Below are positions 2,657 to 18,309 of a DNA stretch of 42,682 bases, in pieces. The translations under genes and the position numbers were made by a program. The stretch spans positions 1-42,682 of the forward strand of contig JAQUQF010000001.1 in assembly GCA_028749105.1 (NCBI GenBank). The letters run 5' to 3'. A model generated the notes under the pieces. It did not search any database, was not told where the DNA came from, and saw only the letters and a list, made by a program, of their open reading frames with translations. Positions within the stretch are counted from its first letter, which is position 1, and the number at the start of each line of letters is the position of its first letter. The DNA is from Acidobacteriota bacterium. Lineage in GTDB: Bacteria; Acidobacteriota; Aminicenantia; UBA2199.

Positions 2657-2979
2657 AACTCCCTCTGGACCTTACGCCAGTAAAAAACGGTCGCTGGTTT
2701 CCGATCGCCGCGGGGCCCACCATTCCAGATGCGCGCAATCCGCTCTGGACTGGCACTTGGTCCGGCGTAATGGCGAAGGTAAAGCTCAGCTATTCTGAGC
2801 GCGTGGTGGGGCACTAGCGCCGCGTGATGGGTGTATTGGGTGCCATAGATCCGATTGACATCCAGCACTACCGCCTTATGGATCTGCATGACCCCCAGGG
2901 CCCGGCCCTGATCGCCTACCGCGGCCGGGTTATTCCCCGACTCGACGATGATCATCGCCGCCAACAGTTGCGCCATCAC
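2641..2979 (-). CDS. Lytic transglycosylase / lysozyme-like (SLT, GH23-type) domain protein, 112 aa
   Basis: Catalytic-Glu motif IIVESGNNPAAVGDQGRALGVMQI plus downstream IARIWNGGP. GGGGGTGG Shine-Dalgarno before the GTG/ATG start at 2979/2976. Confidence 0.85.
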   Translation of the reverse strand: MMAQLLAAMIIVESGNNPAAVGDQGRALGVMQIHKAVVLDVNRIYGTQYTHHAALVPHHALRIAELYLRHYAGPSASPERIARIWNGGPRGDRKPATVFYWRKVQRELCRNR

Positions 2980-3206
2980 TTTCCACCCCCATCAGGCACA
3001 GGGAAAAAAAAGACGCCCCAGTTGCGCCGAACAGCGGCAGCTAGGACGCATGAACCATCAGCGGCCAGGTAACGGTTACCGGCCCAGGCAAGGACTTCTT
3101 GAGGCTGGCCAGGGCGGCCAGGATGCTGCTTAACGAGGATTGATTGCGGAAGATTTCCGCGATCAAAGAAAGCGGCGACGACTGAACTCAGCGGCCCCTT
3201 TGACAT
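2976..3206 (-). CDS. Hypothetical small protein (weak)
   Basis: ATG at 3206 (the track start at 3218 is TTG). Its stop overlaps the SLT start. No recognisable motif. Confidence 0.3.
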   Translation of the reverse strand: MSKGPLSSVVAAFFDRGNLPQSILVKQHPGRPGQPQEVLAWAGNRYLAADGSCVLAAAVRRNWGVFFFPVPDGGGK

Positions 3207-3216
3207 CACACCACCC

Positions 3217-3263
3217 AATCAACATCAGTAGGTAAAAGGATTCCCTACCGTAAGTGGTTGATT
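3217..3263 (-). other. Nested stem-loop in the leader just upstream of the 3206 start
   Basis: Outer arms AATCAAC (3217-3223) / GTTGATT (3257-3263). Inner arms GTAGG (3228-3232) / CCTAC (3244-3248). Confidence 0.5.
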
Positions 3264-3364
3264 ATCAAAGATTTGCAGAATGATAAGATTTATGCGACGT
3301 TCGCAATCTTACCGTTCTGGAGTCTTTGATACATCAACCGGGAAAAATCTCCCCAACTAAAGGC

Positions 3365-3393
3365 AAGCTACAGGCCGACGCTCATTCTGTCAA
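3365..3393 (-). promoter_or_regulatory. Candidate sigma70-type promoter reading leftward
   Basis: Minus strand TTGACA (3393-3388), 17-nt spacer, TAGCTT (3370-3365), in the AT-rich gap 3219-3406. The -10 element is weak. Confidence 0.3.
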
Positions 3394-3406
3394 GATTTAT
3401 TTTCAA

Positions 3407-4000
3407 TTATTTTAGCCGAAAGATTCTATCGGAAAATCTAGCTCGTATCGAAGAAACTATCTGATCGTCCGAACCGTAGGTGGCCAACAAAAACATTGGA
3501 TCCAATTCCTTATATTCAGCGCCTCCAGCAACTCTACTGAAGTAAGCAAACCGGATTTGGATGGCGACGGCATGATTCGATTTCAATACAGTTGGCCATA
3601 CCATCATAAAGGGAAATATAGATTTTGCTGCATCTTGTGATGTAGGGAAAAGGTGGAATCCATGCCGCAATAACTCATCCCTTATTGCTACCCTGATCTT
3701 TATGGCAACATCGGGCTCGGATCCTTCCTCCAATTCCGTGACATATGCATACTGCGGTTGCTGATTCAATCCTGGAATCAACGGCGCCAAGGCCGGGCTC
3801 GGACTCGCCGGAGCGGGCGGCGCCATCTCCGGCACGGCATCGCTTTCCCAGAAATTAGAGGTGGCGTTGGTCGGCATAGACTCCAGCTCAAAACCTGGCG
3901 GTAGTTCTGCCGATTTAAAACCCGGCGGCAGCCTGGGATCAGCGGCAAAGGCCACCACTACAAGTCCACAACAAAGGCAAATCAGGAGCATTGGTTTCAT
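3407..4000 (-). CDS. Secreted (Sec signal peptide) protein, 197 aa, with an N-terminal LPPGFKSAELPPGFELES motif shared with the giant protein
   Basis: ATG at 4000 in an ATGA overlap with 3997..4179. MKPMLLICLCCGLVVVAFA|ADP has an AxA cleavage site. The body of the gene is visibly lower in GC than its neighbours. Confidence 0.8.
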   Translation of the reverse strand: MKPMLLICLCCGLVVVAFAADPRLPPGFKSAELPPGFELESMPTNATSNFWESDAVPEMAPPAPASPSPALAPLIPGLNQQPQYAYVTELEEGSEPDVAIKIRVAIRDELLRHGFHLFPTSQDAAKSIFPFMMVWPTVLKSNHAVAIQIRFAYFSRVAGGAEYKELDPMFLLATYGSDDQIVSSIRARFSDRIFRLK

Positions 4001-4179
4001 AACTCCCCCCGTTGCCGGGCCCATCGGATCTTGGCGGCCCTAATCGCCGCCCGGCGTTTTCTCGCTCCTCGGCCGGCGTGGCCGCCAATCTTCCCCCAGG
4101 CGACTGCGGCGGCGTGGGTAATGATAGCGGTCTCAATCACCGTCCCGCACTTTGGGCAGATAACTTTTCCGCTGTTCAT
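3997..4179 (-). CDS. Small basic protein with a CxxC knuckle, 60 aa
   Basis: ATG at 4179 preceded by AAAGGAGGAAGA. MNSGKVICPKCGTV... with the tail GRGARKRRAAIRAAKIRWARQ. Confidence 0.6.
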   Translation of the reverse strand: MNSGKVICPKCGTVIETAIITHAAAVAWGKIGGHAGRGARKRRAAIRAAKIRWARQRGEL

Positions 4180-4390
4180 TCTTCCTCCTTTTGCGCTCAG
4201 CGGCCCGCTCGGCCGCATACCAGCGGGCCATAACCCAAAAGACCTTCGACAGCGCCGCCCGATATGTAATGCGCCGGCGCTCTTCCCGCAAGCCTAAAAT
4301 GTCCCCTGGCTCCAGACTTACAATCAGCCGCCGCCCAGAGGCTAATGGCCGCTCTCCGCGCCTTTTCACCGTCTTCTTTAGTCCTGTCAT
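4133..4390 (-). CDS. Hypothetical basic protein, 85 aa
   Basis: ATG at 4390 in an ATGA overlap with 4387..4617. Its 3' end overlaps the next gene by 47 nt. Confidence 0.55.
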   Translation of the reverse strand: MTGLKKTVKRRGERPLASGRRLIVSLEPGDILGLREERRRITYRAALSKVFWVMARWYAAERAAERKRRKNEQRKSYLPKVRDGD

Positions 4391-4617
4391 GATACACCCC
4401 TTAATATGGCGGCCAAGCGGGCATCGTCCGCGTCAATACGGCGTTGCAGCGACTCCGCCGCCCGGAAGTCTTCCCCTGCCACAAACCATTTGATTTCCTC
4501 GATGTGCTTCAAGATCAGGCGGGCCTTGTTGACCCCGAAACATACACCGTGATCCCTGGGATCCTCCTTCAAGATGATCGTGGGATGCCCGTGATACTGC
4601 GATCGTTCTGCACTCAT
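4387..4617 (-). CDS. Hypothetical protein, 76 aa
   Basis: ATG at 4617 preceded by AAAGGGGGGAACT. First gene after the AT-rich gap 4640-4804. Confidence 0.6.
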   Translation of the reverse strand: MSAERSQYHGHPTIILKEDPRDHGVCFGVNKARLILKHIEEIKWFVAGEDFRAAESLQRRIDADDARLAAILRGVS

Positions 4618-4804
4618 AGTTCCCCCCTTTCTTACCAACCCTATAGAGCAACTTTCATGCCAAGCAGCTTCGTATATGACAAGAATACATAATCCCCTTA
4701 TATTTCGACGCTTTTAGTTTTCGCCTGGGCACCAATCCGTAGCAGCTTCGCAAAAATGATATTGTAATTCCGCAAAACTGCTACGCGGCGGGGTGTTTGG
4801 ACGG

Positions 4805-7800
4805 CTAACGCCGGTCTTCTATGACCGTTTGTAGGCGCTGATATTTCTCGGCAGAGGTGGGAGCCTGGAGACTGGTTCGCAGGTCCAGAGGTAGAAGTTT
4901 GGCGATTTCTTCTTTCTTTACCGACTCCAGGAAGTTTGCCGCATAATGCCGCTTGATTGCCAGCGCCGGCGGTAATGGCTGGTTGGGATACTTCTGGAGC
5001 AGGTATGCTCCCTCTGCCAGTTTGACTCTGACCTCCGGCGTCAGAACATCTTGGAGCCGCCTGGTGCGCTTGAATGTCGCCATCATCTTATCTATTTCCA
5101 GCCGATTCTCGGCCATCTGATCCCCTGCTGACTTCGAACTCCGCGCCAGGTATTCCTTGTAGCCTACATTGGAGACCTTGAGCCGCCGCCCGAGACTGGC
5201 GGCCACCAGCGGGATCCGCAAAAACTTTTCAATCCCGCTGGTGGGCAGGTCCGGATTGGTATCAAACCGCCCGAGTAACCCGCCCAAGCTCTGATTCCAC
5301 TCCATTTGTGCGACCTTGATCGCGTCCTCGGGCCCGATCTCCCGGGCCTCATCCCGCGATAGCATCGGCCGCCCGCGCGCCATGGGATTTCCCCCGCCGG
5401 CCAGGATCAGGCCGTCATAGAGCATCTTGGTCATGGGGTTTATGCCTGGCAACTGTCCACCGGCGAACGAAGCCAGATTGCCGGCCACCTGCTTCCAGTC
5501 CTGGGCGGGCCCGATCCCCGCGAGCGCGAGCGCGCTGTTGGCCAGGGCCGCCACTACCCTCTCGGGTTCTGCCCAGACATGCCGGTAATAGAGGACTTTG
5601 CGCTCTTTCCTGTCCACCCAGCACAGAGGGATGCAGAGATAATTCATTTTATCAGATTCAGAGATGGAAAGATCCATTTCTTCGGATTCGTTACGCTTCT
5701 TCCGGCCGGCCAGCCACATCCCCAGGCCGCCAAAGACCAAGGCCCGCAGCGCCAACGGCCAGATCACCCGCCGGGCAGAGTTCCAGGCAAATTCGGCCGG
5801 CCGGTTCCGGGCTGTCCGCCAGAGCGAGCGCGAGCCCTCTTTGATTGCGTTGTAGAACAGAACAGCCAGGCGGATGTTGGGCGTATAACTCCCCTTTTCG
5901 AGGAAATCAGGCGAGCCGCTCATCATTCGCACCGTAATCCTCTTTTCCCATTCCGGCATATCGGGTTGGTATTTATCCAGGTGTTGCATCCCGGCAATCT
6001 TGACGGTTCGCTCTAAAACCTGGCCATATTCGCCCTGGTGCTTGAGCCAGTCTAGCATCACCCTAAATAATTCCTTGTCCCGGGTGCTGTCCAGGGGATC
6101 CAGGCCGCGCCGTTTCATTTCCCGGATAAACGGATCCGTCTCCGCGCCTTCGCCCCAATATCCTTCGCTACGGGATATGACCATCCCGCGCTTGAGGGCC
6201 AGCATGGCCAGCGCGTTTTCCCGCCCCGCGTATTGCTGGTGGGCTGCCCGGAAGCTCGATAATGCAAACTCCCCAAAGGCGCCCCCGGTCCCAGGCACGT
6301 ATTCCCGCCAGCGCCGCCAGGTCCCGGGCATCTGGAAGTTGAACGCGCCGACGTCTCGGGGAAAATTGGTAATAAACCAAAACCACGGATTCTTGGCCGT
6401 GATCCCGGAGGCGATCACGTCGTTGGCCACCTGGAGCGCGCCCTGGGCCAGGGAATGGGTCATAATCGAGTTACCCCGATTCCATTGGTCCACCAGGAAG
6501 CGCGGGGCATACCAGGCGTATAGCTCCCCTTTGTGTATGCAGTAAATTGTTCCAATCCGAGCATCATCGCGTTCAATAAACTCCAGCCGCCGCCCGGTCC
6601 ATTGTTTCTCTGCCTGCCGAAATAGATCCTGGTATGGCGAGTTGAGCATAGCCTGGATGGCCACCCATTTAGCGCGTTCTTTATACATCCAGTTGATCAG
6701 CGCGGCGCCCTTTAGTAGTGTGGCGCTTTCGGGGTTGGCAATCGGTCCGGTCATGCCGATTTGACGATAAACTTTATTCCCCACGCCCGATCCCAGCCGG
6801 TTGTTAAGCGCCTGCTGCAGGCTATCCTCGGTCTCATTCCAGCGCCCGCGGACCGCGGCAAACGTGCAATATACGCGGTTGTCTTCCAGCCATTTCTGGA
6901 GTGCTTCATCCAGGATCTCAAACTCCCTGGCCTGGCCGACGACCTCTTGCTGCCAGATCTCGGAGAGCTTCTTCTGCGAAGCTTCCAGGGCCGCAAACCG
7001 TTCCGGCCCCAGGTTGCGTTTCAATTCCTCGATCCGTTCCCTGGCGCTTTTCGGCGTGGCCAGCCAGGGGTTGGCCAGGTTCATCCGGCCGCCGGTGGAG
7101 TCCCGCCATTCGTAGCCTACCCGCAGCAGGAAGTCATACTCCCCGCGATCCTTCCGGTTGAGCCCCAGCTTTTCGCTGGGCGCCACCACTTCGGAATTGA
7201 CGCGCGCGGCAAATCGTTCAATGGGCGCCCCGCGGTAAAGGTAGTCGGAAAGCGCTCCCAGGGCCGGGCCGCCCTGGTCTTTGGGCAGGCGTTCCAGCCG
7301 CCATTGGTAGGGCCGGAAGATCCGGTCCAGTTTCATGCTGAATTCTTCCTGGCGCTCCATCCTGGTTGGCGCCAGGCTGGATTGGATCACCAGCAGTTGG
7401 TCCTGGGCTTCCATGTCCGCGCGCAGGTTGCGGACCCAATCCTCGCGCGCCGTGCCAGCCTTGATCTTCTCCTGAATCGCATCGTATTCCCGCTTGAGCG
7501 CCGGGCGTTGTTCCAGGTATTCGTAGAACAGGTGCGTGAATAGTGGCGCGCGCTTGTGGACCGCCGCCGGGTTATTGAGCAGGGCGCTGACCGCCTCGGC
7601 ATACATCTCCTCGGGCTTGTCGTAGTAGGGCTGCCATTCTCCTCCTCCGCGCCACCAGAGGATGAGGTTCTTGAGTTCGGCCTTGACCTGGCCTAGCGTG
7701 ATCATGCCGCGGCGATCGGTTTCACGCTTGACCAGTTCGGCGTAATGCTGGCTGACCTGCTTCTTCCAGGCGTCCCGTTGGCCAGCGGGCGGCCGTTTGC

Positions 7801-10800
7801 CAGCGCGGCGCTCGGCCTCGCGGCGCAGTAGCCGGCGATCCCGATCCGTCAGGGCTGCTTCTGGCGTGGCGGGCGTCTTGGCCATGGCCTCTTTCAGGTA
7901 ATTTCGCAGCGCCGCAATGTGTCCAAAGAGGTTTCCGCGGCCGTCAATCATCTCTTGTGGCAGCCAGTCCCCGAAATGTCCCACCTCGTGCATGGCCACC
8001 TTGGCGGCCAAAAGCGGGCCCTCGGCCAGGGCTTTCTCGACCTGGGCCTCAAAGAGCATCTTGTAACGCTCCCCGGCCGCGGCGCGCAGCTCTTCGGGGG
8101 TGGCCGTGGCGGGCAGGTTGAGCTTTGCCCATTCCTCGGCGTCTTGGGCCATACGTTCCTTCTCGTCCGGCTGGACCAGGTTGAAAATGCTGGCTTTGAG
8201 TTCAATTTCCCCCGGGGCGCGCAGTCGGAAGAGCCCCAGGACGCCGCGCTGGTTGCCGCGGAAGCGCTCTTTGATCTTCATCCAGCCGCCGCCGGTCAGG
8301 ACGCGGAAGAGCATCCCCACTTCCGGCAGTTCCATCGGGACGACGCTGTAATTGGGATCGTCCGCGATGGGGATCTTCTCGACCGTCCCCGCCTGCCCCA
8401 GGCCGGGCCCCGGCCAGCCGGCGCCGTAGGCGTCCGCATGCTCCTCCCCGCCCGGCCCCACGGTGCCCAGCTCCCTGCGGCCGCCGCGTTTCGGCGCGGC
8501 CGCCGGCTCGAGGTCGCTCATTTCTTTGCGGCCGGCTTCCACTTCCGGGATGAAGGCGGCCATGTCCACGTCTGCGCCGTTCTGGGCCATGAGCGCCACG
8601 TCCAGCTTCCGCTGGAGCACCCCAATCCGCTTCTGATCCCCAAAACTTGAGGGGGCGGTAAGGAATTGTGCATGGCTATTGCTCTTGGTGGTGCGCCGGC
8701 TGATTCGCCCCAGGAGTTGCTGGAAGACGTCCCCCGAGAAATCCATGGAAAGCACCAGCATTGTCCGGGGTTTGTCCCCTACCCGGTCGTCGAGGTTGAC
8801 TCCCGTTCCACCGCTTTTAGCGGTCATGACGGCGACCGGGACCTTGTCCTTCTGGAAAGCGTCAATGGCGGTGGTTTTATCGCCTTTGCCGAATATACTC
8901 GCAAACGGGATCTTGGCGGCCTCGAGCGCCTTGACCAGTTCCGTCGCGCTACCCGGAATGGTGTAATGCTTGCCGACCTGGGCATCCCAGATTTTCGCCA
9001 GCTTGAGTTTGCTCTTGATCATCCAGTCTGAATCTCCCGGCGCCGGTGCCGGCCGCCGCAGGCGTTCAGAGGCGTTGACGGAATCCACCACGATGATCAC
9101 CTTCTGGCCGGCGGCCAGGGCTTCTTTGGTGCGGCGTATGGCTTCCGGGACCTTGTGCGGTTCGGCCAGGTGGGCCATGGCTTGTGTCCGCAGGCCGCTT
9201 AAAATTATCCGGTATTTGCTCCTTGGGGGTAGGCTCCGGATGGCTTGGTCATAATAGGCCAGCATCCGTTGTTCATGCTCGGCCACTTCGCGCGGCATTT
9301 CAACGTTGGTTCTCTCCAGTTTGCCCAGGAATGGATATTCCCGGCGGATCATGGCGCCGTTCTTGATGGCGCCCAGGCGCATAAGGGCCAGGTTTTGCTT
9401 GATACGTGGCCAGTCAAATCCCTGCAAGGGGACGACCACTTCCGTTATTTCGCCAGTTTCGGGATCCTGTTTCTCCTTAATCTCAAATCCCAGCAGGTTT
9501 GCGATGTAATCGGGTTGCAAACCGGTGATCTCGGCCATGAAATAGGCCGCGCCCGTTGGCCGGTCCATCGGCGTTGCGGTGGCAAAGACAATAAACTCCG
9601 CGCTGCGGACCAGTTTCTTGCTGGCTATGGTTTTGCTTGCCAGGGAGTTCTTGAGGTTGTGGCTTTCGTCCATCATTACCACGTCAAACTTCCTCCCGGC
9701 GATTGGATGCGTCGTCGGTTTCACCTGCTCCAGATGCTTGAGTGCGACCGGATTTTCCCCGCTGACTCCTGTATATGTGGCCAGGTAAAACCGATTCAGA
9801 TCAATCTTCAGGCGCTTGGCGTCGTCCAGGAAGCTTCCTTGCAGGATTGATTTTGCCTGGGTCACGATCAGGATCTTGGATTTCCCGCCGCTCTGTTCGT
9901 ATAGTTCGTTGGCGGCTGCCAGCATTTCGGTGGTCTTGCCCAGCCCGACCCCGTCGCCCAATAGATAGCCGCGCTGCTTCTTCTTCGCCCGGGTGAGGAT
10001 GGCGTTGACGCCCAGGCGTTGCTCTTCGCTCATGTCGTATTTCCCGCGGGGGACTATTTCCTCGGGTTGGGGGATGTCGGCCTGGTTGACTACGATCAGG
10101 TCCGTGCGTTCCTTGCCGGGCCCGGGGATAAACTTCTCGCGCGGTTTGGTGTCGTCAGCGGCTTCAATCTTGCCTTGCTTGACCTCTCCCCAGACGGCTA
10201 TCTCGCCGGATTGAATCATATTTCCGGCCAGCTTGGCGATTTCCTCGTATTTGCCCGCAAAGCGTTCACCATAGCGGGCCAGGACCGCCTGGGCGGCCTC
10301 GGGTGTGATCAGCGCCGGCGCCTGGCCGGTTTTCTGAGCGCTTTCAACCGCCGCGGCGGCGACCGCCCGGGCCCCGGCGCGGAGTAACTTTTCTTGTTCT
10401 TGGCTGTAGTCCGCGGGGGCCTCACCGAAGCGCTGGGAGTGGGCGGGCATGCCGAAGGTCAGTTCCGGCCGGTGTGCGCCGGGCTGCGGTAGCTGCATCT
10501 CTTGTCGCAGGCTGCGGCCCAGGGTGGAGACCACGTCCAGCAGAACGTTGTTGTCCAGCGCTTGCCGCCAGGTGGGCAGGTAGCGCTCGAATTGCTCGGG
10601 GGTTACCGCGGCCAGCAGGCTGTTGGCGCCTGTCTGCCGGGCTAGCCGGCGGGCGGTGGCCTGTTGCCGGGTGAGATTGTCCTCCAGCGTGGCTTCCTGG
10701 AGTTCCGCCAGGCAAACGACTTTGCCCGGACTGGTTATGCCGATCATGAGGATGGTATTCTTCGGCCGCTGACCGTAGGCCGCGTTGATCTGTATCACCT

Positions 10801-13800
10801 GCAGTTCGCTGCCTATCTTGGCGCCTAAAAGCGGATGGGGTGTGTCAGGGGTCAGCAGGGGATCCGGGGCGGCGGCCAGGGCTTGATCTTCGATGATTCT
10901 ATAGTTGCCTTCCGGGTCGTAGTATCCGAATTTGCCGTGATCGCCCACCAGGGCGCCTTTCATCCGCGGTCCTATGAGTTGCCGCAGCGCAACCGTCATC
11001 TGTTTGTCTTCGGCGCTGGTGCGCTTCACGTCCCCGCTCGGGTGGTTGTGAAAGGCCATGATTTCAAGGTCAAGCTCTTCGGCCAGTTGTTTGATCGGGA
11101 TGGCGATCTCATCGTAATTCCGGGGCATGTGGACTGCGCCAGGCAGGCGGCTGGTAATGGGTAAGTCCAGCACCACCTGGCCGCTGGCGCGGTCGGATGC
11201 CAGCAGGTGAAAGACCTCTAACCGCGCGCAGCGGGCGGCGCGGACGAGTTGCTGGATGCCGGCCAGGGTGTTGAGTTGGTGGCCGATCAGCGGCGCGACG
11301 CCGTTGAGGGAGAGTTCGTAGGCAATGCCGCGGCCGGTAAGGGTGAGCCGGCGTGGTAGTCCGGGGTGCTGCGGGTCAGATACCCTGCCGCCTGAAACCT
11401 CGCTGATCGCTTCGAGCGCTGTTTTGATGTTGGCGACTTTGTCTTCGCCTGCTCGTTGGGGGTAGTCATTGAAATCCAGCTCCAGTTGTTGATAGTCCTC
11501 GCCGGGTTCGGAATATCTGGTTGGTGCTGCGGTCTTTTCTATCCGGGCGCGGAGTTCCGGGCGTAGGGCCGGACGCTCCCAGATAAAATCTGGCATGTGG
11601 CCGATTTCCGGGAAGGGTTCGGCGCTCCACCCCTTTGCGATGAGATCGGTTACCTCAGGATCCAGGGTAAAGATTTCGGCAGGGGATACACCCCGTTCCA
11701 CGGCCTCTTTATACCATTCCCGGCCGCGCGCGGTTTGCAGACGCTTGATCGCCCAGGCCGTCTTTTCGGTGCTGTAGATGTAGATGAGCCTTTGGTTTTC
11801 ATAGGTGTCCGGCTTTAGGGACGTCATTTCCTCGACCACCTGGGCCGGGAAGGGACTGTAAATATCCGGCTTTTCTAATAGCCTACCCTGGGTTTTGGTG
11901 GCGTCAAGGAATAAATCTGGCTGCGGCGGCGGCAGGACCACCGGGACCTGGCGGGCCAGCCAGCGAGTATGTTTGGCCGTGGCTAGCTGTATCCTGATGC
12001 TGGCTTCCTCTTCCGTGATCCTGCCTTCGTCCAGGGCGGTGATCAGGGCCTTGGCCTTCTGAATCATTGCCCGGCTGGCCAGCCCGGCAGCATCCCCCGT
12101 CGCCGGGCCGGCCAGCTCCATCCCGGCGATCTCCTCGATCTCCTGGCGCGCCTTGGTCTTGGGCTTTTCGGACGGGAATAGTTCCGGCTGGGTGAAAAGC
12201 GCGTTGTATGCCGCCGGGACGTCGCGGACCGTTACCACCGGCGCGCCAAAGGTGTCTTCCGGAAGTTCCTTGCCATACTTTGTAGCCGCTTCGCCCACCT
12301 TGGGCGGGTTGATCAGCGCGTCTAGCTCGTCCAGGGCCGCCTGGCTCAACCCCACCGGCCCCGCCGGCGGCTGTCCTGGCGTGGGCGTTGTCGGGATCCC
12401 GGCCTCGGCCGGCGGCGCCGGCGGCTGTCCTGGCGTGGGCGTTGTCGGGATCCCGGCCGCGGCCGGCGGCGGCTGTCCGGCCGCCAGGGATTCAGGGAAG
12501 CCTTCCATCCCGCGGCTGATATGCTCCAACAAGTCAATCTTGACGGTGCTGGGTGGTTTGCCGGTGAAAAGTTCAAGCTGGTCCTTGCGGACCTGCACGG
12601 CCATTTGTGCATATTTCTCCAAAGCCTCCCGGAGTTGTTTGGCGCTCTTGGCTTGGGTGAGGATCAACGCCAGGCGGCGCTGTTCGGGGCTGGCGTTCTT
12701 GAACATATCGAGCTGCGAAAAGAAGAGCTCCATTGTCGGGAAGGTTCCTTCCGTGACCAGGCGCTTGCCTTCCAGGATGAATGGCATGGTGGCGCTGATC
12801 TCGGGGGCCAGATCAAACTCCGGCCGGGTGGCCTTGAGGCGCGCCAGGACTGGCGTGGCGGCGGTGATACCGCGCAGCATGTCCTTGACCCGGTATTCTC
12901 CGGCGCGTTCCAGGAGCGCCGCGACCGAGTCGTGAACGCCTGGATCATCCCGTAACAGCAGGGCTAGCAGGGCTCGCTGGATCCGGGCCTCGGTCTTCTC
13001 TGGCAAAAGCAGGCCGCGGCTGTCGAAGAGATCGCTGGAGTCGTCTATGCCCGCCAGGAATCCCTCAATAAAGCTCTTATTGCTGGCCGCTGTAATCTCG
13101 CCGCTTTCCGGCAGATTCATGGCCGCCAGTAGGTTCCCGGCGCTGATTACCTCGGCGTCAGCCAGGGATTTCTCGGATTCGGACATCGTCTGCGTTACCG
13201 CGCGGTTGCTTTCTCGCGCGAAGTCCGGCGCGTCGGTGCCGGTGTAACTGCTGATAATGCGCGCCACAAACGGCTTGGTCATACCTGCCGGTGGCGGCCC
13301 GATCTTTACTTTCTGCGCCAGGGCAGCAGAGTAGTCCTTCAATGCCACCTTCCGGGGGTCGTTGTCGTCCAGGGCATAAACGTCCTCCAGGGTGTCCATG
13401 CGCCCGTAACCGGCCACCGGCCGACCTACGGCGGCGTCTATCATCGGCGCGCCGTAGTCGCTGGTGGTGGATTCTCCCAGGCGGTCAGGAGCGAATTCCT
13501 GCAGTCGCCGGCTCCGGCTCATGGTGTAGATCTTCCGCTGGCGGTTGCGTTCCTGCAGCCCGGCGAGTTGGGACGCGTTGATGTTCCGCGCGGCTTTGAC
13601 CTGGGGATCGTCCAAATCCAGCCAGGCGTAATAGCCTTCCGCCACCTTCCCGGGGACCTGCGGCGCTTGCACACGGAAGCCTACCACCCCCGCCGGCGCC
13701 GGCGGGATCCGCACCTGGGGCTTGACCACCGGCGCCAGGGGCGGCACGGCCGGCCCGGCGGCCGGCGGCGTGGCGGCTAAAGCCTGCCGGATCCCCGCCA

Positions 13801-15484
13801 GGGCCGGGTCTGTTCCCGGCAGGGCCGGCAGTAACCCCGTCCCACGCCGGGCTTCGGGCGCAGGGCCCCTGGCGGCCAGGGGTTGCTGTTCGATTCCGAT
13901 CCCGCGCGCGCGGGCCAATTCCGCTTGGGCCGCCTTGTCGCCTTTGCGCGCCCGGGCCGCCAGATCTTTCTGCCGCAATGCTTCCGCGCGTTCGGCGCCT
14001 TGGACTTTCTCGCGCCATTCTTCGCGGAATCGGGCGGCATCTCCCCAGGCTTTGGCCAGTTCTTTGTCTTTGAGATAAAGATCCACCTGCTGCTGGGCCC
14101 GAGCGTCCCCTTGCATGGCCGCTGTTACCCAGGTGTTTGCTGCTTTTGCGTCTAAGCCTTGCTTGATCAACTGGCTGACCGCCTGGCCAGCCAGGACTTG
14201 TTGCACCATATCCGGGAGTTGCATGCCAACGAGTAGAGCAAAGGTGTTGCGGACGTCTTCGCTGGTTACCTCCTGCCCCATGGCTTTCTGCGCGGCAGAG
14301 AGTTCCAGGGTTCTGAGCCCGGCGCCGGCAAGTTGCTTGGCCACCCTTTGGAACGCGCCGCCTTGGGGCGTAAACCATTTCGGCAAGGGCGTTCGCAAGA
14401 GTATTCCCGAGACCGCCGATGCTCCCAGGCCTTGCATATCCCATTGTGGCTTCTCGCCGGCTGTAACCCGCATATCATTGTCAAGCATCTGGTGCTGTAG
14501 GTTGAGGAGTGGCAAGCCTACCCATGGGACGCTGGCAATCAGCGCGTCGCCGCCCAGCGCAAAGCGGGGAATATCCTGGAGCAGAGTGTCCGCCAGGGAG
14601 TTGCCGGTCCCCAGCTCTCCCATCCGTATAGCGGCGTCCTTGACTTCCTGGGGCGTGAACACTTCTTTCCGGCGTTCACCGGTAACGGGGGAATAGTAGG
14701 TTTCCGGGTGCGTGGCCAGCTCAAGACGTTGGGTTACATTCCGGACGGCCTTCCCGGCGACTGATGGCCCGAAAACCCCCAGAAATGGCTTTCCAAGCGC
14801 TTCCCGGAAGAATCCGCCGCCACGGGCGTATTCCCGGGCTTGAACCTCCAGGGGTTTCGGCGGCGGCGGAAATAGCCGTTCCTGGACGCGCTGCAGCACG
14901 GATTTGGGTTGATCGGGAGCCCGTAGAACGGGGCCCTCTTCCGGCTGCATGGCGGCGGCGGTCTCCATCCAGGCTTTGGGATCTGTCGGCTCCGGCGGGA
15001 TCGCCAGGTAAGGCATCAGATCCTGGTCCAGCCGGATTAGCTGCTGGGGTTGGACGAATTCAGCGGCCTTTGTGGAAAATTTCGGCGGCGGCGGGGAGAT
15101 CGCCACCTCCGGCGGCTGGCTGACCCCGACCGGCGGCGGGGCGCCCTGTAAGAGGGTCTCACCTGGCGGCAGCTCGGCCTGCGGCGGAATTGCCCCAGGC
15201 GGCTCAAAGCTAAACCCCGCCGGCAACATCTCCAGCTCAAACCCAGGCGGCAATTCCCCCTGGCCGGCCGGTGGCGCTTCCAGCTCAAACCCAGGCGGCA
15301 AGGCCGCCGGGTCAGCCTGCTGCACCGGTGGCGCCTCCAGCTCAAACCCAGGCGGCAATTCCCCCTGGCCGGCCGGTGGCGCTTCCAGCTCAAACCCAGG
15401 CGGCAAGGCCGCCGGGTCAGCCTGCTGCACCGGTGGCGCCTCCAGCTCAAACCCAGGCGGAAAATCTATCTGATCCCGTTCCAT
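4805..15484 (-). CDS. Giant polyvalent protein, 3,559 aa: PPGFELE repeats, RadC-like JAB, SNF2-family ATPase, HExxH zincin motif, hydrophobic unassigned C-terminal region
   Basis: Single uninterrupted ORF with ATG at 15484. The motifs listed in the sub-features below were read directly from the translation. Confidence 0.92.
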   Translation of the reverse strand: MERDQIDFPPGFELEAPPVQQADPAALPPGFELEAPPAGQGELPPGFELEAPPVQQADPAALPPGFELEAPPAGQGELPPGFELEMLPAGFSFEPPGAIPPQAELPPGETLLQGAPPPVGVSQPPEVAISPPPPKFSTKAAEFVQPQQLIRLDQDLMPYLAIPPEPTDPKAWMETAAAMQPEEGPVLRAPDQPKSVLQRVQERLFPPPPKPLEVQAREYARGGGFFREALGKPFLGVFGPSVAGKAVRNVTQRLELATHPETYYSPVTGERRKEVFTPQEVKDAAIRMGELGTGNSLADTLLQDIPRFALGGDALIASVPWVGLPLLNLQHQMLDNDMRVTAGEKPQWDMQGLGASAVSGILLRTPLPKWFTPQGGAFQRVAKQLAGAGLRTLELSAAQKAMGQEVTSEDVRNTFALLVGMQLPDMVQQVLAGQAVSQLIKQGLDAKAANTWVTAAMQGDARAQQQVDLYLKDKELAKAWGDAARFREEWREKVQGAERAEALRQKDLAARARKGDKAAQAELARARGIGIEQQPLAARGPAPEARRGTGLLPALPGTDPALAGIRQALAATPPAAGPAVPPLAPVVKPQVRIPPAPAGVVGFRVQAPQVPGKVAEGYYAWLDLDDPQVKAARNINASQLAGLQERNRQRKIYTMSRSRRLQEFAPDRLGESTTSDYGAPMIDAAVGRPVAGYGRMDTLEDVYALDDNDPRKVALKDYSAALAQKVKIGPPPAGMTKPFVARIISSYTGTDAPDFARESNRAVTQTMSESEKSLADAEVISAGNLLAAMNLPESGEITAASNKSFIEGFLAGIDDSSDLFDSRGLLLPEKTEARIQRALLALLLRDDPGVHDSVAALLERAGEYRVKDMLRGITAATPVLARLKATRPEFDLAPEISATMPFILEGKRLVTEGTFPTMELFFSQLDMFKNASPEQRRLALILTQAKSAKQLREALEKYAQMAVQVRKDQLELFTGKPPSTVKIDLLEHISRGMEGFPESLAAGQPPPAAAGIPTTPTPGQPPAPPAEAGIPTTPTPGQPPAGPVGLSQAALDELDALINPPKVGEAATKYGKELPEDTFGAPVVTVRDVPAAYNALFTQPELFPSEKPKTKARQEIEEIAGMELAGPATGDAAGLASRAMIQKAKALITALDEGRITEEEASIRIQLATAKHTRWLARQVPVVLPPPQPDLFLDATKTQGRLLEKPDIYSPFPAQVVEEMTSLKPDTYENQRLIYIYSTEKTAWAIKRLQTARGREWYKEAVERGVSPAEIFTLDPEVTDLIAKGWSAEPFPEIGHMPDFIWERPALRPELRARIEKTAAPTRYSEPGEDYQQLELDFNDYPQRAGEDKVANIKTALEAISEVSGGRVSDPQHPGLPRRLTLTGRGIAYELSLNGVAPLIGHQLNTLAGIQQLVRAARCARLEVFHLLASDRASGQVVLDLPITSRLPGAVHMPRNYDEIAIPIKQLAEELDLEIMAFHNHPSGDVKRTSAEDKQMTVALRQLIGPRMKGALVGDHGKFGYYDPEGNYRIIEDQALAAAPDPLLTPDTPHPLLGAKIGSELQVIQINAAYGQRPKNTILMIGITSPGKVVCLAELQEATLEDNLTRQQATARRLARQTGANSLLAAVTPEQFERYLPTWRQALDNNVLLDVVSTLGRSLRQEMQLPQPGAHRPELTFGMPAHSQRFGEAPADYSQEQEKLLRAGARAVAAAAVESAQKTGQAPALITPEAAQAVLARYGERFAGKYEEIAKLAGNMIQSGEIAVWGEVKQGKIEAADDTKPREKFIPGPGKERTDLIVVNQADIPQPEEIVPRGKYDMSEEQRLGVNAILTRAKKKQRGYLLGDGVGLGKTTEMLAAANELYEQSGGKSKILIVTQAKSILQGSFLDDAKRLKIDLNRFYLATYTGVSGENPVALKHLEQVKPTTHPIAGRKFDVVMMDESHNLKNSLASKTIASKKLVRSAEFIVFATATPMDRPTGAAYFMAEITGLQPDYIANLLGFEIKEKQDPETGEITEVVVPLQGFDWPRIKQNLALMRLGAIKNGAMIRREYPFLGKLERTNVEMPREVAEHEQRMLAYYDQAIRSLPPRSKYRIILSGLRTQAMAHLAEPHKVPEAIRRTKEALAAGQKVIIVVDSVNASERLRRPAPAPGDSDWMIKSKLKLAKIWDAQVGKHYTIPGSATELVKALEAAKIPFASIFGKGDKTTAIDAFQKDKVPVAVMTAKSGGTGVNLDDRVGDKPRTMLVLSMDFSGDVFQQLLGRISRRTTKSNSHAQFLTAPSSFGDQKRIGVLQRKLDVALMAQNGADVDMAAFIPEVEAGRKEMSDLEPAAAPKRGGRRELGTVGPGGEEHADAYGAGWPGPGLGQAGTVEKIPIADDPNYSVVPMELPEVGMLFRVLTGGGWMKIKERFRGNQRGVLGLFRLRAPGEIELKASIFNLVQPDEKERMAQDAEEWAKLNLPATATPEELRAAAGERYKMLFEAQVEKALAEGPLLAAKVAMHEVGHFGDWLPQEMIDGRGNLFGHIAALRNYLKEAMAKTPATPEAALTDRDRRLLRREAERRAGKRPPAGQRDAWKKQVSQHYAELVKRETDRRGMITLGQVKAELKNLILWWRGGGEWQPYYDKPEEMYAEAVSALLNNPAAVHKRAPLFTHLFYEYLEQRPALKREYDAIQEKIKAGTAREDWVRNLRADMEAQDQLLVIQSSLAPTRMERQEEFSMKLDRIFRPYQWRLERLPKDQGGPALGALSDYLYRGAPIERFAARVNSEVVAPSEKLGLNRKDRGEYDFLLRVGYEWRDSTGGRMNLANPWLATPKSARERIEELKRNLGPERFAALEASQKKLSEIWQQEVVGQAREFEILDEALQKWLEDNRVYCTFAAVRGRWNETEDSLQQALNNRLGSGVGNKVYRQIGMTGPIANPESATLLKGAALINWMYKERAKWVAIQAMLNSPYQDLFRQAEKQWTGRRLEFIERDDARIGTIYCIHKGELYAWYAPRFLVDQWNRGNSIMTHSLAQGALQVANDVIASGITAKNPWFWFITNFPRDVGAFNFQMPGTWRRWREYVPGTGGAFGEFALSSFRAAHQQYAGRENALAMLALKRGMVISRSEGYWGEGAETDPFIREMKRRGLDPLDSTRDKELFRVMLDWLKHQGEYGQVLERTVKIAGMQHLDKYQPDMPEWEKRITVRMMSGSPDFLEKGSYTPNIRLAVLFYNAIKEGSRSLWRTARNRPAEFAWNSARRVIWPLALRALVFGGLGMWLAGRKKRNESEEMDLSISESDKMNYLCIPLCWVDRKERKVLYYRHVWAEPERVVAALANSALALAGIGPAQDWKQVAGNLASFAGGQLPGINPMTKMLYDGLILAGGGNPMARGRPMLSRDEAREIGPEDAIKVAQMEWNQSLGGLLGRFDTNPDLPTSGIEKFLRIPLVAASLGRRLKVSNVGYKEYLARSSKSAGDQMAENRLEIDKMMATFKRTRRLQDVLTPEVRVKLAEGAYLLQKYPNQPLPPALAIKRHYAANFLESVKKEEIAKLLPLDLRTSLQAPTSAEKYQRLQTVIEDRR
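7900..8300 (-). other. Zincin-like metallopeptidase motif region of the giant protein
   Basis: HEVGH at nt 7976-7990 (aa 2499-2503). A downstream EMYAEAVSALL supplies a possible third-ligand Glu. The fold is not verified. Confidence 0.55.
8670..10030 (-). other. SNF2-family SF2 ATPase/helicase module of the giant protein
   Basis: Motif I GDGVGLGKT (about 9930-9960). Motif II DESHNLKN (9647-9670). Motif III TATP. Motif V SGGTGVNLDD. Motif VI QQLLGRISRR (8693-8722). Confidence 0.85.
10880..11290 (-). other. RadC-like JAB/MPN (JAMM) domain of the giant protein
   Basis: HNHPSGDVKRTSAED (nt 11006-11050, aa 1479-1493) fits H-x-H-x7-S-x2-D, with an upstream Glu in ARLEVFHLL. Confidence 0.75.
12366..12458 (-). 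repeat. Duplicated 39-nt block (54-nt period) encoding GIPTTPTPGQPPA linker repeats inside the giant gene
   Basis: ggcggctgtcctggcgtgggcgttgtcgggatcccggcc occurs at 12366-12404 and again at 12420-12458. Confidence 0.85.
15230..15460 (-). repeat. 105-bp tandem repeat, 2.2 copies, encoding (PPGFELEAPPVQQADPAAL-PPGFELEAPPAGQGEL)n
   Basis: Copies start at 15230, 15335 and 15440 (partial) and look identical by eye. There are six PPGFELE motifs in aa 8-95. Confidence 0.9.
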
Positions 15485-15487: not shown

Positions 15488-16942
15488 TTATGCTGGCACC
15501 CATTGCCCGTTACGATATACCATCCTCGCGCCGGTCGCCTTATTGACGGCTGTCGAGCCCTCAATAGGCTTCGGTCCCGCGGGCGCTGCGGGCGCCGCCG
15601 GTGCGGCGCTGCCGGCTGGCGGCGGGGCCACTTGCGGCCCGGCTTCCTGGGCTGGCGGCGGTGTGCCGGAAAACTTGCTGCTCATGAATCCCATCATTTG
15701 CTGCATCAAACCCGGCTCAACCGGGGTAACTTCGACATTCGCGGCAGCATTCTGTAGCATTTCCATCAAAGGATTGGGGCTCTTTAGGACCTCCATGGTG
15801 TCGGCGTTCACGATCATGTTGCCCATCTTGACAAAACGATGCGTCTTACCCTGGCCATCGGTAACGGTATATTGCGGCATCTGCTGTTTGTCCTCAAACT
15901 GCTTTGCTTGCTGCTGCAGTTTCAGGGCCGCCTGGTCAAGGCGCTTTTCTCCCAGATCCTTCTGGAGTGCCAGCCGGGCTTGGTCAGCGGCGGCTTTCCT
16001 GGCTGTCTCTTGTTCCCGCGCTCTGGCCTGGGTTTCGGCGGCTTGGACACGCGATTCCCCGGTGGCCTGCGCGGCCGCTACCCGGGCTTCGGCCGGTATG
16101 CGCGCTTTTGCCTCGGCCGTCCGTGCGGCAAACCCGGCAATCCGTTCCTGGGTCTGCCTCTGCCGCTCCGTGGCCTCTTCCTGGCGGCCTTCGCGTAACC
16201 GCCGCTGCTGCTCTTCGTGCGTCATGCCCGCTCCCACCTGGTTGGTGGCGGCGTTCAGCGCGCCCACCGACCGTGCGTATTGGCTCCAGATGTTTTCGCC
16301 TTCCTTGATCTGCCGCTCCCGCTCCGCCATGGTCGCCGGCGCCAGGCGCGACATCGGCATCCCCGTTGAGGTCACCGCCCCGCCAAACCGATCAAATGGC
16401 GCCTGCTGCCCCGGCGCCTGGGCCGGCGCGGCCACGGACGCCGGCGCCATCACGGGCGGCCGCGGCTGCGCGGCGGCGTATTCCTCCATGGCGTTCAATG
16501 TCCCGCGCTGGGCTGGCGTCCCGCGCTGTATCCCAAAGTCCGCCAGCGCCGGTCCGGGCGCCGCCCCGGGCCGCCAAGGCCCAGGTGGCAACTGTCCGTA
16601 ATTCTGCATCTGATTCAGCATCCGGTTTTGCCCAGGCAACCCGGCAGGCAATCCCAGGTCCGTTGGCGCCGGCTGGGCATTCGACCACGGCCCCGGTCCC
16701 CGCCCGACCGCTGCGGGCGCGGCCCCGGCCGCGGCCGCGGCCGCTTGAATGGCCGCCGGCGCCGGCGTGGCCGCGGGGACCGCCCCCCCGCGCGCGCGCT
16801 GCCATTCGGTTGATCCCACCCGCTCCCCAGCGGCGTTGGTGTCCCCGCGCAGATAGTCGCCCAGCACGTTGATCCCCTCCTGATTGTCCATCGGATTTTG
16901 CAATAATTCGCGGCGCCGCCGCATCTCTTCTTCGTAGGTCAT
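15488..16942 (-). CDS. Low-complexity Ala/Pro/Gln-rich coiled-coil protein, 484 aa (putative internal virion/ejection protein)
   Basis: ATG at 16942 preceded by AAGGAGACACC. Long ERQ-rich helix. Its stop lies 3 nt before the giant gene start. Confidence 0.7.
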   Translation of the reverse strand: MTYEEEMRRRRELLQNPMDNQEGINVLGDYLRGDTNAAGERVGSTEWQRARGGAVPAATPAPAAIQAAAAAAGAAPAAVGRGPGPWSNAQPAPTDLGLPAGLPGQNRMLNQMQNYGQLPPGPWRPGAAPGPALADFGIQRGTPAQRGTLNAMEEYAAAQPRPPVMAPASVAAPAQAPGQQAPFDRFGGAVTSTGMPMSRLAPATMAERERQIKEGENIWSQYARSVGALNAATNQVGAGMTHEEQQRRLREGRQEEATERQRQTQERIAGFAARTAEAKARIPAEARVAAAQATGESRVQAAETQARAREQETARKAAADQARLALQKDLGEKRLDQAALKLQQQAKQFEDKQQMPQYTVTDGQGKTHRFVKMGNMIVNADTMEVLKSPNPLMEMLQNAAANVEVTPVEPGLMQQMMGFMSSKFSGTPPPAQEAGPQVAPPPAGSAAPAAPAAPAGPKPIEGSTAVNKATGARMVYRNGQWVPA

Positions 16943-16958: not shown

Positions 16959-17918
16959 TTATGCGTTGGTAAAGTTCCATTTGAACAAAAAGAAAGAACC
17001 GCCGCTACTGTGCCAATAAGTTGATTGATACTCTACCGGGATCACATCCCAGGCAAAACCAGCGCCAACCTTGGTAAACGGCGACTCGTCATAATACCCC
17101 ACCAGATCAGTTAACACCGATGCGTCAGCGGCTTCCGACCATTCTTGAAACTTCTCAAAACCTGCTCCCGTCAGTCCTAGTTCGGGGTCTATAATCCCAA
17201 CCCCCTGATGGTATAGCCACGCCCATAATTCCTTAGCCGCCGGGCGTCCAGTCCAAATCGAACCGCACCCAAACTTCGCCGCCGTGCGAAACTGCTCGTC
17301 CGCTGCGCCCTGCGTGTAAGCCCAATACCATTCGTTTTCGCCGCCACCACTAATCCAAGGGGCCGCAGCCCACCCCGCGTTATCGGCGCTCCATCGCGTA
17401 GTTGCATCAACCCCTTGCGTCGGAACGCCGCTGCCATAAGCCTTATATCCCATAATCGCGCCGCCAAGGTCTTCCCACTTCTGATAAGCTGGCGTCCACT
17501 TCAACGCCGCCAGGCCCTTCTGTAAATCCTCAAAACACCAGTTTCCGCGCATGTCTCCAGCCCCAATCTTCCCGTAGCTGAACGGATCCCCGGGCTCCAC
17601 CTTGCGCCGGAAACCGTCCGCATGCAGCCCCGCCGCCGCCCGCCAGGTCGCCAGCGTGAACGGCCGGAAACTCTTGCTGTCGGCGGCCAGCGGACCGGAC
17701 ACATGATCCACAAAGTTAACGCAGTTGGTTTCCAGCCAGTCCTGGATCGCCCGCCAAAGCGTCTTGTCCTGCGCGGCCGCGCCGGCCGTCAGCGCCGCCA
17801 CCGCGCTTTGCCTTAGCGCCTGCCGGCGCTCGCTGTAAGCCAGGACGATCTCATTCGCCCCGGCCAGGTCCTGCCCGCCATTGGTCCAATCCGCCGGCGC
17901 TGTAAATGCGGCGCTCAT
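16959..17918 (-). CDS. Trp-rich hypothetical protein, 319 aa (putative virion protein)
   Basis: ATG at 17918. Preceded by a heptad-repeat leader. No recognised motif. Confidence 0.7.
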   Translation of the reverse strand: MSAAFTAPADWTNGGQDLAGANEIVLAYSERRQALRQSAVAALTAGAAAQDKTLWRAIQDWLETNCVNFVDHVSGPLAADSKSFRPFTLATWRAAAGLHADGFRRKVEPGDPFSYGKIGAGDMRGNWCFEDLQKGLAALKWTPAYQKWEDLGGAIMGYKAYGSGVPTQGVDATTRWSADNAGWAAAPWISGGGENEWYWAYTQGAADEQFRTAAKFGCGSIWTGRPAAKELWAWLYHQGVGIIDPELGLTGAGFEKFQEWSEAADASVLTDLVGYYDESPFTKVGAGFAWDVIPVEYQSTYWHSSGGSFFLFKWNFTNA

Positions 17919-17926: not shown

Positions 17927-17972
17927 CAATCTCCAATCTCAAATTTCTTCCTTCTGCATTCTGCCTTCTGCC
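17927..17972 (-). repeat. Leader micro-repeats: GAGATTG/GAAATTT heptads plus GGCAGAA heptads
   Basis: Plus-strand caatctc caatctc aaatttc (17927-17947) and ttctgcattctgccttctgcc (17952-17972), lying between the stop at 17974 and the start at 17918. Confidence 0.85.
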
Positions 17973-17973
17973 T

Positions 17974-18264: not shown

Positions 18265-18276
18265 TCCCTCTCCCTT

Positions 18277-18304: not shown

Positions 18305-18309
18305 TTTCT

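Follow-up and report, generated by a model that had tools for sequence, protein, structure and literature searches.

A giant late gene of a novel podophage-like lineage probably encodes a virion-packaged polyvalent protein with a conserved C-terminal module and exchangeable enzymes

We analysed a stretch of 42,682 nucleotides (nt) of contig JAQUQF010000001.1 (assembly GCA_028749105.1, deposited as Acidobacteriota bacterium; hereafter the window), in which a single minus-strand open reading frame (ORF) encodes a protein of 3,559 amino acids (aa), referred to below as the giant. Sequence comparison places the giant in the class of polyvalent proteins (PMC5512222) and, more specifically, among the podophage giants of the type of gp75 of phage Bcep22 and ORF80 of the Shiga toxin (Stx) phage Sp5. 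On balance, we consider it probable that the giant is a virion-packaged ejection protein with polyvalent anti-defence cargo, belonging to a novel podophage-like lineage.

The giant ORF takes up 10,680 of the 42,682 nt (25.0% of the window). The ORF list and the translation confirmed that it is uninterrupted, as a first-pass annotation made from the letters alone had stated, and a script recovered every motif listed there: HNHPSG at aa 1479, GLGKT at 1847, DESH at 1939, TATP at 1969, QQLLGR at 2255 and HEVGH at 2499. The parts of the giant are the following.

4805..15484, minus strand: the giant ORF, with an ATG start, 3,559 aa and a stop codon (ORF list and translation).
15095..15484, minus strand: aa 1-130, the N-terminal short tandem motif (PPGFELE, in five copies), then Pro-rich low-complexity sequence.
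13730..15193, minus strand: aa 98-585, the conserved N-terminal module (N-module), from BLASTP conservation.
12605..13603, minus strand: DdrB-like ParB domain (aa 628-742) with a helical extension common with P1 DdrB (to aa 960).
12355..12462, minus strand: about aa 1008-1043, a duplicated PT-rich linker, AGIPTTPTPGQPPA twice (direct repeat and translation).
10895..11284, minus strand: aa 1401-1530, a divergent RadC-like JAB domain with the Glu in LEVF, H1479-N-H1481, S1490 and D1493.
8615..10069, minus strand: aa 1806-2290, a SWI2/SNF2-type SF2 ATPase (Pfam and motifs).
7535..8332, minus strand: aa ~2385-2650, an HExxH metallopeptidase-like region with H2499, E2500, H2503 and E2626 (in EMYAEA).
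5180..7183, minus strand: aa 2768-3435, the core of the conserved C-terminal module (C-module), homologous to the C-termini of Bcep22 gp75, Sp5 ORF80 and the Vibrio D171 giant.
5711..5767, minus strand: aa 3240-3258, the sole strongly hydrophobic, transmembrane-like helix, VIWPLALRALVFGGLGMWL (Kyte-Doolittle, window 19, score 1.64).

Polyvalent proteins, their hub domains and their predicted delivery together with DNA were described by Iyer, Burroughs, Anand, de Souza & Aravind in 2017 (PMC5512222). The class is defined by at least two functionally unrelated domains, enzymatic or effector, in one polypeptide, and the giant carries a DdrB-ParB domain, a RadC-JAB domain, an SNF2 ATPase and an HExxH motif. 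Its gene lies in a late, packaging context, in an operon with genes for the large terminase (TerL) and the major capsid protein and with portal-like and tail-fibre-like genes. With the gp75/ORF80-type proteins it shares the homologous C-module and a place as the last large gene in a short-tailed phage's morphogenesis module. The polyvalent-protein reading of the first-pass annotation therefore holds, resting on four hub domains (DdrB-ParB, RadC, SWI2/SNF2 and the HExxH peptidase) and the place of the gene at the end of the late operon.

The last thousand or so residues, left unassigned in that annotation, proved to be a conserved module, the invariant core of the family, with remote but significant homology to the gp75/ORF80 C-termini. 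We compared a profile of 14 family sequences with the aligned C-terminal 1,200 aa of Bcep22 gp75 (4,602 aa), the VT2-Sakai/Sp5 ORF (2,806 aa) and a Vibrio phage protein (D171, 2,800 aa). The two were paired by hhalign at 97.2% (E 3.1e-11, 597 columns), against 0.2% for a reversed-template control, and the paired regions were aa 2768-3435 of the giant and aa 3771-4463 of gp75. A tblastn search with the C-terminal 1,226 aa of the giant gave no match. In the AlphaFold model, for which the alignment was shallow (9 sequences), the C-module (aa ~2650-3559) was mostly helical, with a mean predicted local distance difference test score (pLDDT) of 62.7. Foldseek comparison of the C-terminal model with BFVD returned 43 matches at E<=1e-3 (best 5.8e-23), many of them rear segments (suffix _2/_3) of proteins labelled 'large polyvalent protein associated domain', including those of PTXU04 and Ralstonia phage Alix; against the PDB it returned noise only (best E 0.11). 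The segment at aa 3240-3258 is hydrophobic throughout the family alignment. No Pfam model, those for polyvalent proteins included, recognises any of the 14 aligned C-terminal regions (peptidase plus C-module).

The C-module of gp75 is present in 349 GenBank phage records. It is 27% identical to a 2,806-aa ORF of Stx phages annotated as 'LPD5 domain-containing' (VT2-Sakai 48066-56486), and it also occurs in about 100 Vibrio phage records. This distribution across Stx and Vibrio phages indicates that the class of giant podophage proteins is much wider than the label 'DarB-like' suggests.

The HExxH region precedes the C-module. H2499, E2500, H2503, the RG of an RGN motif and the distal E2626 are invariant in all 14 aligned family members; a script found HExxH in each of the 17 related giant ORFs, and every aligned homologue that spans the region carries it. 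In some homologues the two helices are separated by an insert of ~80 aa, and a variable insert at this place fits the description of the polyvalent-protein metallopeptidase (MPTase) (PMC5512222). Alignment with the peptidase of P1 DdrB was confined to the HExxH helix (hhalign 10.6%). The evidence for a metallopeptidase is good at the level of the motif, with the fold unconfirmed.

The C-terminus of the giant led to its relatives: 8 protein clusters among 5.8 billion proteins, 11 IMG/VR contigs (26-50 kb) and 6 contigs from GTDB genomes. HExxH and the C-module are kept in every one of the 17 related giant ORFs (1,245-3,109 aa), at 30-38% identity, the most distant being L025 (~21%). In this comparative survey of domain order among metagenomic relatives, ParB, RadC and SNF2 were swapped, whereas HExxH and the C-module were kept. 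RadC was seen in only six members of the lineage, as a lower bound (among them L009, L013, L014, L020 and L021), an SNF2-type P-loop in about four (among them L008, L014 and P0002) and DdrB-ParB in about four (among them L014 and P0009; a ParB-like N-terminal stretch of P0007 was read from the alignment). The Pfam-scanned members of about 1,800-2,200 aa showed no recognisable enzyme. The L008 giant is colinear with that of the window over aa 98-585 and 1666-3558 and differs in the middle. The colinear ends of L008 with their different middle, together with the varying upstream enzymes, indicate a constant chassis with exchangeable cargo. As judged from these alignments, the chassis consists of the HExxH region and the ~950-aa C-module in every relative, with the N-module added in at least some of them. 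The short tandem peptide motif at the N-terminus is also counted to the chassis, and the membrane-like helix is part of its C-module.

The N-module (aa 98-585) is 46% identical to the corresponding part of the L008 giant (E 7e-105) and 26% identical to that of the L009 giant (E 7e-16) by BLASTP, and 50% identical to P0009, the sole homologue found by the N-terminal search; it matched no Pfam or other family. The first-pass annotation had treated about 1,300 aa after the N-terminal repeats as helical, unassigned sequence with a duplicated PT-rich linker. The linker is there, as a 54-nt direct repeat (12355-12408 / 12409-12462, 94% identical), but the description is incomplete, since the stretch holds the N-module and, at aa 628-960, a DdrB-like ParB module that had been overlooked (PF18763 is above its cut-off).

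This ParB domain matched Pfam PF18763 with E 7e-8 to 7e-9 (33-36 bits, cut-off 27.6), and the region also matched phrog_5143 and phrog_2299. A tblastn search with the giant retrieved ddrB of P1, P7 and related phages. BLASTP aligned aa 70-392 of P1 DdrB with aa 643-960 of the giant at 27% identity over 337 columns (E 2e-14). The active-site arginine is kept, G-Y-G-R of the giant aligning with G-N-G-R of P1 DdrB. As cargo, the domain is predicted to be NTP-binding or nuclease-like.

The RadC-like JAB domain is divergent but supported by profile comparison. Matching of the region to NCBIfam RadC gave E 0.004, BLASTP against E. coli YicR was limited to the motif, and a homologue search with aa 1340-1800 found none. 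A RadC profile built from the domains of family members and E. coli YicR aligned with it by hhalign at 93.4% (E 2.5e-7, 96 columns), with E, HNHPSG, S and D invariant and a one-residue insertion before the Ser. Unambiguous RadC domains occupy the same relative position in L009 (E 7.5e-30), L014 (5.5e-24) and L013 (1e-15). The JAB domain claimed earlier at aa 1479 is thus upheld, with its catalytic residues intact, though it stays below the Pfam cut-off; it is predicted to act as a nuclease or processing enzyme.

The SNF2-type ATPase, likewise named in the first-pass annotation, was recovered above the Pfam cut-offs both as ResIII (38.3 bits against 22.5) and as SNF2-rel_dom (36.7 against 24.9), and it matched the helicase family phrog_62 (E 2.6e-27). 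Motifs I (GLGKT), II (DESH), III (TATP), V (GGTGVNL) and VI (QQLLGRISRR) were all found; Helicase_C was weak (E 0.03).

The relevant neighbours of the giant, all on the same strand, are listed here.

15488..16942, minus strand: upstream 484-aa low-complexity (Ala/Pro/Gln-rich) ORF, a candidate internal virion protein.
16959..17918, minus strand: 319-aa ORF, two genes upstream of the giant, syntenic in relative L004.
3407..4024, minus strand: 205-aa ORF, the next gene downstream, with a signal-peptide-like N-terminus, MKPMLLICLCCGLVVVAFA, followed by LPPGFKSAELPPGFELES.
35177-37237, minus strand: TerL.
32277-33281, minus strand: SU10-type major capsid protein (Pfam E 1e-21).
28629-30911, minus strand: SU10-portal-like gene (weak match).

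The giant is the last large gene after TerL, the capsid gene, the portal-like gene and a tail-fibre-like gene, with a Kelch-repeat protein also encoded on this strand. Its ATG lies 3 nt past the stop of the 484-aa ORF (TAA-GCC-ATG). Gene order and this spacing agree with the earlier placement of the gene at the distal end of the virion-protein operon, directly after a low-complexity putative internal protein. No family match was obtained for the 484-aa ORF in domain searches of the window genes. L004 has a positional counterpart of it before its giant, with a common C-terminal motif TG.R..(F/Y)RNG.W.P, and in L014 a 402-aa ORF abuts the giant. The 319-aa ORF is 43% identical over 82 aa to a 361-aa ORF of L004 (E 9e-14), which was also found by tblastn. 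Beyond the structural genes lie a DnaB helicase and helix-turn-helix regulators, the DnaB-containing replication block being at 38-41 kb.

The reading of the giant as packaged and ejected is supported by two homologies. Its aa 643-960 are homologous to P1 DdrB, an internal head protein that is processed and co-ejected with DNA (PMC5512222, PMC12810830). Its aa 2768-3435 are homologous to the C-module of Bcep22 gp75 and of JC1 gp69. The latter is 79% identical to gp75, takes up 22% of its genome and ends the morphogenesis module, and mass spectrometry found it in CsCl-purified virions with 51 unique peptides (PMC9144972). The position of last large gene of the structural operon recurs in L004, Bcep22, PTXU04 and Sp5. 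Deletion of ORF80 in Sp5 leaves DNA packaged and heads normal, and the particles are non-infectious (PMC5155283). PTXU04 gp25 is essential by CRISPRi-ART, its knock-down strongly reducing plating (PMC11879866). Given the family core of the C-module, and given that the related Sp5 ORF80 and PTXU04 gp25 are essential in E. coli podophages, the giant is probably more than a dispensable anti-defence effector.

Beyond the observed integrity of the ORF, its domain identities, homologies, conservation pattern and gene position, we infer for this phage packaging, ejection, autoprocessing and an anti-defence role, which would proceed in three steps. The giant would be synthesised late, translationally coupled to the internal-protein gene, and loaded into the procapsid. 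At infection it would exit by way of the portal and tail, and the C-module, perhaps with the N-module, would help it across the envelope, the constant modules also serving packaging; such a role of the C-module would explain why homologues are essential. The metallopeptidase would then cut the polyprotein, and the freed ParB, RadC and SNF2 parts would work on the entering DNA or in its vicinity, protecting or remodelling it in the face of restriction-type defences, like the P1 Dar proteins. The cargo would accordingly comprise three nucleic-acid-directed enzymes in the exchangeable middle, namely a DdrB-type ParB, a RadC-type JAB enzyme and a SWI2/SNF2 translocase.

Several observations weigh against this reading. 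For the zincin named in the first-pass annotation at HEVGH (aa 2499), the motif stands, being invariant in 14 relatives, whereas a zincin fold could not be confirmed: the HExxH region of none of the 14 members matches a Pfam model, sequence and profile searches of the PDB and Foldseek against the PDB were empty, and the AlphaFold model has a pLDDT of about 50 at the motif. The Pfam RadC match (PF04002) reaches 20.5 bits (E 4.8e-4, 30 residues aligned), below the cut-off of 22.1, and the single-sequence AlphaFold model of aa 1340-1800 (pLDDT 37) is too poor to give a fold, its order of helices and strands near the motif being compatible with JAB but not usable. About 1,100 aa of the giant (aa 131-620 in part, 960-1400 and 1530-1800) are without any assignment. 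The homology to gp75/ORF80 is remote (14% identity), and the profiles that detect it are shallow (14 and 3 sequences). Virion presence and a role in infectivity are known from homologues and are carried over to this phage, and the authors of the Sp5 study took the phenotype of the ORF80 deletion to reflect faulty tail assembly and not faulty ejection (PMC5155283). Autoprocessing would be an extrapolation from P1 DdrB, where the peptidase role is itself a prediction (PMC5512222).

In the main rival view, the giant would chiefly have a role in the structure or assembly of the tail or ejectosome (like a giant needle, tape-measure or channel protein), and its enzyme-like domains would be incidental or help to assemble the virion, for example as an ATPase for a step that needs energy, and would not act against defences. 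The invariant parts are the non-enzymatic modules and HExxH only, no enzyme is recognisable in the short members of 1,700-2,000 aa, PTXU04 gp25 is essential in a laboratory host, the giant contains one membrane-like helix, and Sp5 ORF80 was read as a tail-assembly factor with a possible ATPase role (PMC5155283). However, SNF2, RadC and ParB have all kept their catalytic residues, these domains are hubs of the P1 Dar system and of polyvalent proteins that are injected, and the way they come and go among close relatives is typical of accessory cargo in an arms race and not of structural parts. We therefore regard this view as unlikely for the protein as a whole, and as regards the chassis it is compatible with a packaged and ejected giant.

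A more elaborate proposal starts from the N-terminal repeats. The first-pass annotation had described aa 1-130 as PPGFELE repeats and Pro-rich sequence, and a script located five copies starting at aa 9, 28, 44, 63 and 79 (spanning aa 9-85); they form a perfect 105-nt DNA duplication (15230-15334 / 15335-15439). Most family members begin, within the first ~100 codons, with two to five tandem short motifs that are usually hydrophobic-acidic and differ between members: PPGFELE in the window, P[ED]GYVLE in P0009 (L004), [LM]GFE[VF] in L010, PPRFEDT in L021, NPFDEFD in P0005 (L001), YDA[SA]EV in L014 and [ILF]DLS in PTXU04 gp25 (L019). In the 205-aa ORF downstream, LPPGFKSAELPPGFELES is the same motif as the N-terminal repeats of the giant, with PPGF[EK] twice just after the signal peptide, and the likeness extends to the DNA level (repeat family D12). 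This ORF has no Pfam match and no homologue in the related loci, and its link to the giant is uncertain. Conceivably, the repeats are lineage-specific 'address labels' that would dock the leading end of the ejected giant on a host envelope or periplasmic target, and the secreted 205-aa protein (3407-4024) a decoy that would block the docking target and so exclude superinfecting relatives, the whole family being a delivery chassis for exchangeable cargo. In the relatives, the member's own N-terminal motif is absent from other ORFs within +/-10 kb, leaving the decoy idea without comparative support, and we hold this joint proposal to be doubtful. If true, virion-borne enzymes would be delivered on one chassis, comparable to polymorphic toxin systems, in podophages ranging from Verrucomicrobiota phages to Stx phages.

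Less probable still is a cytoplasmic, non-packaged polyprotein for replication, recombination or repair, whose SNF2, ParB and RadC parts would work on phage DNA during replication. All three enzymes do come from superfamilies of DNA metabolism, and packaging in this phage is carried over from homologues. The gene, however, ends the structural operon and is remote from the DnaB replication block; homology to the internal head protein DdrB and the virion-associated gp75 points elsewhere, and nothing in replication proteins parallels the size and constant C-module of the giant.

An N4-like virion RNA polymerase, or another transcription enzyme diverged past recognition, is a very improbable identity for the giant. 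N4 gp50 is similar in size and position and carries an MPTase of the polyvalent type (PMC5512222), and the giant has about 1,100 aa without assignment. Yet no RNA polymerase match was found in Pfam, PHROGs, NCBIfam or PDB sequences, the stretches without assignment are short, of low complexity or helical, and the short family members have no room for an RNA polymerase of ~1,100 aa.

Finally, we see next to no chance of an artefact (a chimeric assembly, or ORFs fused by sequencing errors) in this uncultured sequence with its perfect internal DNA duplications, given that colinear giants of 1.7-3.1 thousand aa occur on independent contigs from many samples, that homology spans both ends and the junction regions, and that both flanks are syntenic in relatives. 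Homologous giants on 11 IMG/VR contigs and 5 contigs of metagenome-assembled genomes (MAGs) (1,702-3,109 aa), and a relative of 1,245 aa on one further MAG contig, indicate on sequence evidence that the giant ORF is not an assembly artefact.

The phage itself, judged by its genes, is far from anything cultured. The giant gene had no megablast match in GenBank phages, and the sole match of the capsid protein is partial, 29% identical and in a Pelagibacter podophage. Downstream of their giants, the relatives carry homologues of window genes 1865-2656, 40682-41131, 39450-40322, DnaB and TerL. This synteny joins the two ends of the window and suggests a complete or nearly complete, circularly permuted genome whose gene order is that of the relatives; the window ends show no exact terminal overlap, so circularity rests on synteny with the relatives. 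The GTDB relatives are mostly MAGs of Verrucomicrobiota or Lentisphaerota. L023 lies within the 3.5-Mb contig CBDBDC010000003.1 of Ca. Synoicihabitans sp., and L024 comes from Rariglobus sp.; such C-module relatives inside large Verrucomicrobiota contigs point to integrated prophages and to a Planctomycetes-Verrucomicrobia-Chlamydiae (PVC)-group host range of the lineage. The host of the phage probably belongs to this group, and within it to Verrucomicrobiota.

Several other features of the window were recorded. Right after the giant lies a gap of 780 nt (4025-4804) without a minus-strand ORF of at least 100 aa; its GC content is lower (0.53-0.54 against about 0.61), and no convincing terminator or promoter was found in it above shuffled expectation. 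It may be a regulatory region or a late/early gene boundary. Repeats are also found in structural-block genes on the minus strand: six 180-nt (60-aa) repeats in the 820-aa ORF at 18310-20772, runs of 42-nt and 93-nt repeats in the 958-aa Kelch-repeat ORF at 24148-27024, and 51-nt and 57-nt repeats in the 387-aa ORF at 30989-32152, between the capsid and portal-like genes. The structural block further contains, at 23126-23740 on the minus strand, a stand-alone 204-aa class I S-adenosylmethionine-dependent methyltransferase (Methyltransf_24, E 3.5e-24). A CT-rich element, TTCTGCCTTCTGCCTTT (coding strand AAAGGCAGAAGGCAGAA), occurs twice between genes with 85% identity, at 17937-17975, just upstream of the start of gene 16959-17918, and at 18269-18307, just downstream of gene 18310-20772; it may serve as a promoter of late genes or in the initiation of translation. 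At 39834-39933, in or beside ORF 39450-40322 and adjoining the DnaB gene, a 10-nt unit (TTCCCTGCAT / TTCCTTGCAA) is repeated in tandem about ten times; these copies are iteron-like and may mark a replication origin. GCC/GGC-rich repeats at 1-170 and 42313-42530 encode the poly-Ala tails of paralogous small minus-strand genes (shared ...WLSGADR-AAAA...), which also have a common 49-nt 5' region around an MKI start (516-564 and 42093-42141). The whole 42.7 kb contains no tRNA genes by ARAGORN and no Rfam family at the gathering threshold.

What is new here is the combination of RadC and DdrB-ParB as cargo, with a peptidase region and a C-module that lie outside curated models. New as well are explicit boundaries of chassis and cargo, the recurring short N-terminal tandem motifs and the likely Verrucomicrobiota host. 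The results tie an uncultured lineage to a widespread and barely studied class, the giants encoded by the last large late gene of Bcep22, Shiga-toxin phages and PTXU04. The split into chassis and cargo offers concrete boundaries for experiments in tractable relatives. RadC-type JAB domains prove to be in use among phage polyvalent proteins, and the family, for which no model exists, is currently missed by annotation pipelines.

Among known systems, the polyvalent proteins of Iyer et al. resemble the giant in having several unrelated enzyme domains, in the hub domains MPTase, SNF2 and DdrB-ParB, and in late-gene context. [quoted passage not shown] The paradigm proposed in the first-pass annotation, P1 DarB, has to be replaced. 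A script found no [DNS]PP[YFW] in the giant, in keeping with the DPPY/NPPY-type methylase motif not having been seen before; no methyltransferase profile matched, there is no methylase-helicase dyad, and tblastn finds P1 ddrB, not darB. The P1 relative is thus DdrB, which like the giant has a ParB domain with a helical extension of ~200 aa, ParB upstream and HExxH downstream (HELGH at aa 872 in P1). P1 DdrB, on the other hand, is a 995-aa part of a six-protein system in a myophage, whereas in the giant ParB and HExxH are separated by ~1,500 aa that include RadC and SNF2, and HExxH is followed by a ~950-aa C-module. The parallel drawn earlier with N4 gp50, a virion-packaged podophage protein of ~3,500 aa, holds for size and position and, in the absence of any RNA polymerase signal, for nothing further.

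PTXU04 gp25, a putative polyvalent protein of 2,198 aa, comes, as here, from the last large gene in the structural operon of a podophage, and its four N-terminal tandem [ILF]DLS motifs are comparable to the five PPGFELE copies of the window. It resembles aa ~2827-3288 of the giant (Foldseek E 3e-8; hhalign 78%, E 1.8e-5). It lacks HExxH and recognisable enzymes, and its Pfam LPD38 domain does not align with the giant. Membership of the giant in LPD38 (PF18857) was rejected, there being no match even at E<=5 and the LPD38 segment of gp25 failing to align with the family profile.

The gp75/ORF80 phages differ from that of the window in host phylum and capsid lineage (the window capsid protein is SU10-type), and gp75 is only about 14% identical to the giant, below BLAST detection. 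The cargo differs too: gp75 carries an SLT lysozyme, an N6-adenine methylase motif (NPPF) and a helicase, the window giant DdrB-ParB, RadC and SNF2 with no methylase. As in the window giant, about 1,050 aa separate the HExxH motif of gp75 from the C-terminus. The giants of Bcep22 and JC1 are preceded by a virion protein of ~500 aa (about 510-530 aa), which stands at the position of the window's 484-aa ORF. The 'DarB-like' giants of the Lessievirus phages Bcep22 and JC1 and ORF80 of the Stx phages Sp5 and VT2-Sakai (2,793-2,806 aa) share with the window giant a size of 2,800-4,600 aa for the group, a place as last large morphogenesis gene and variable enzymes upstream.

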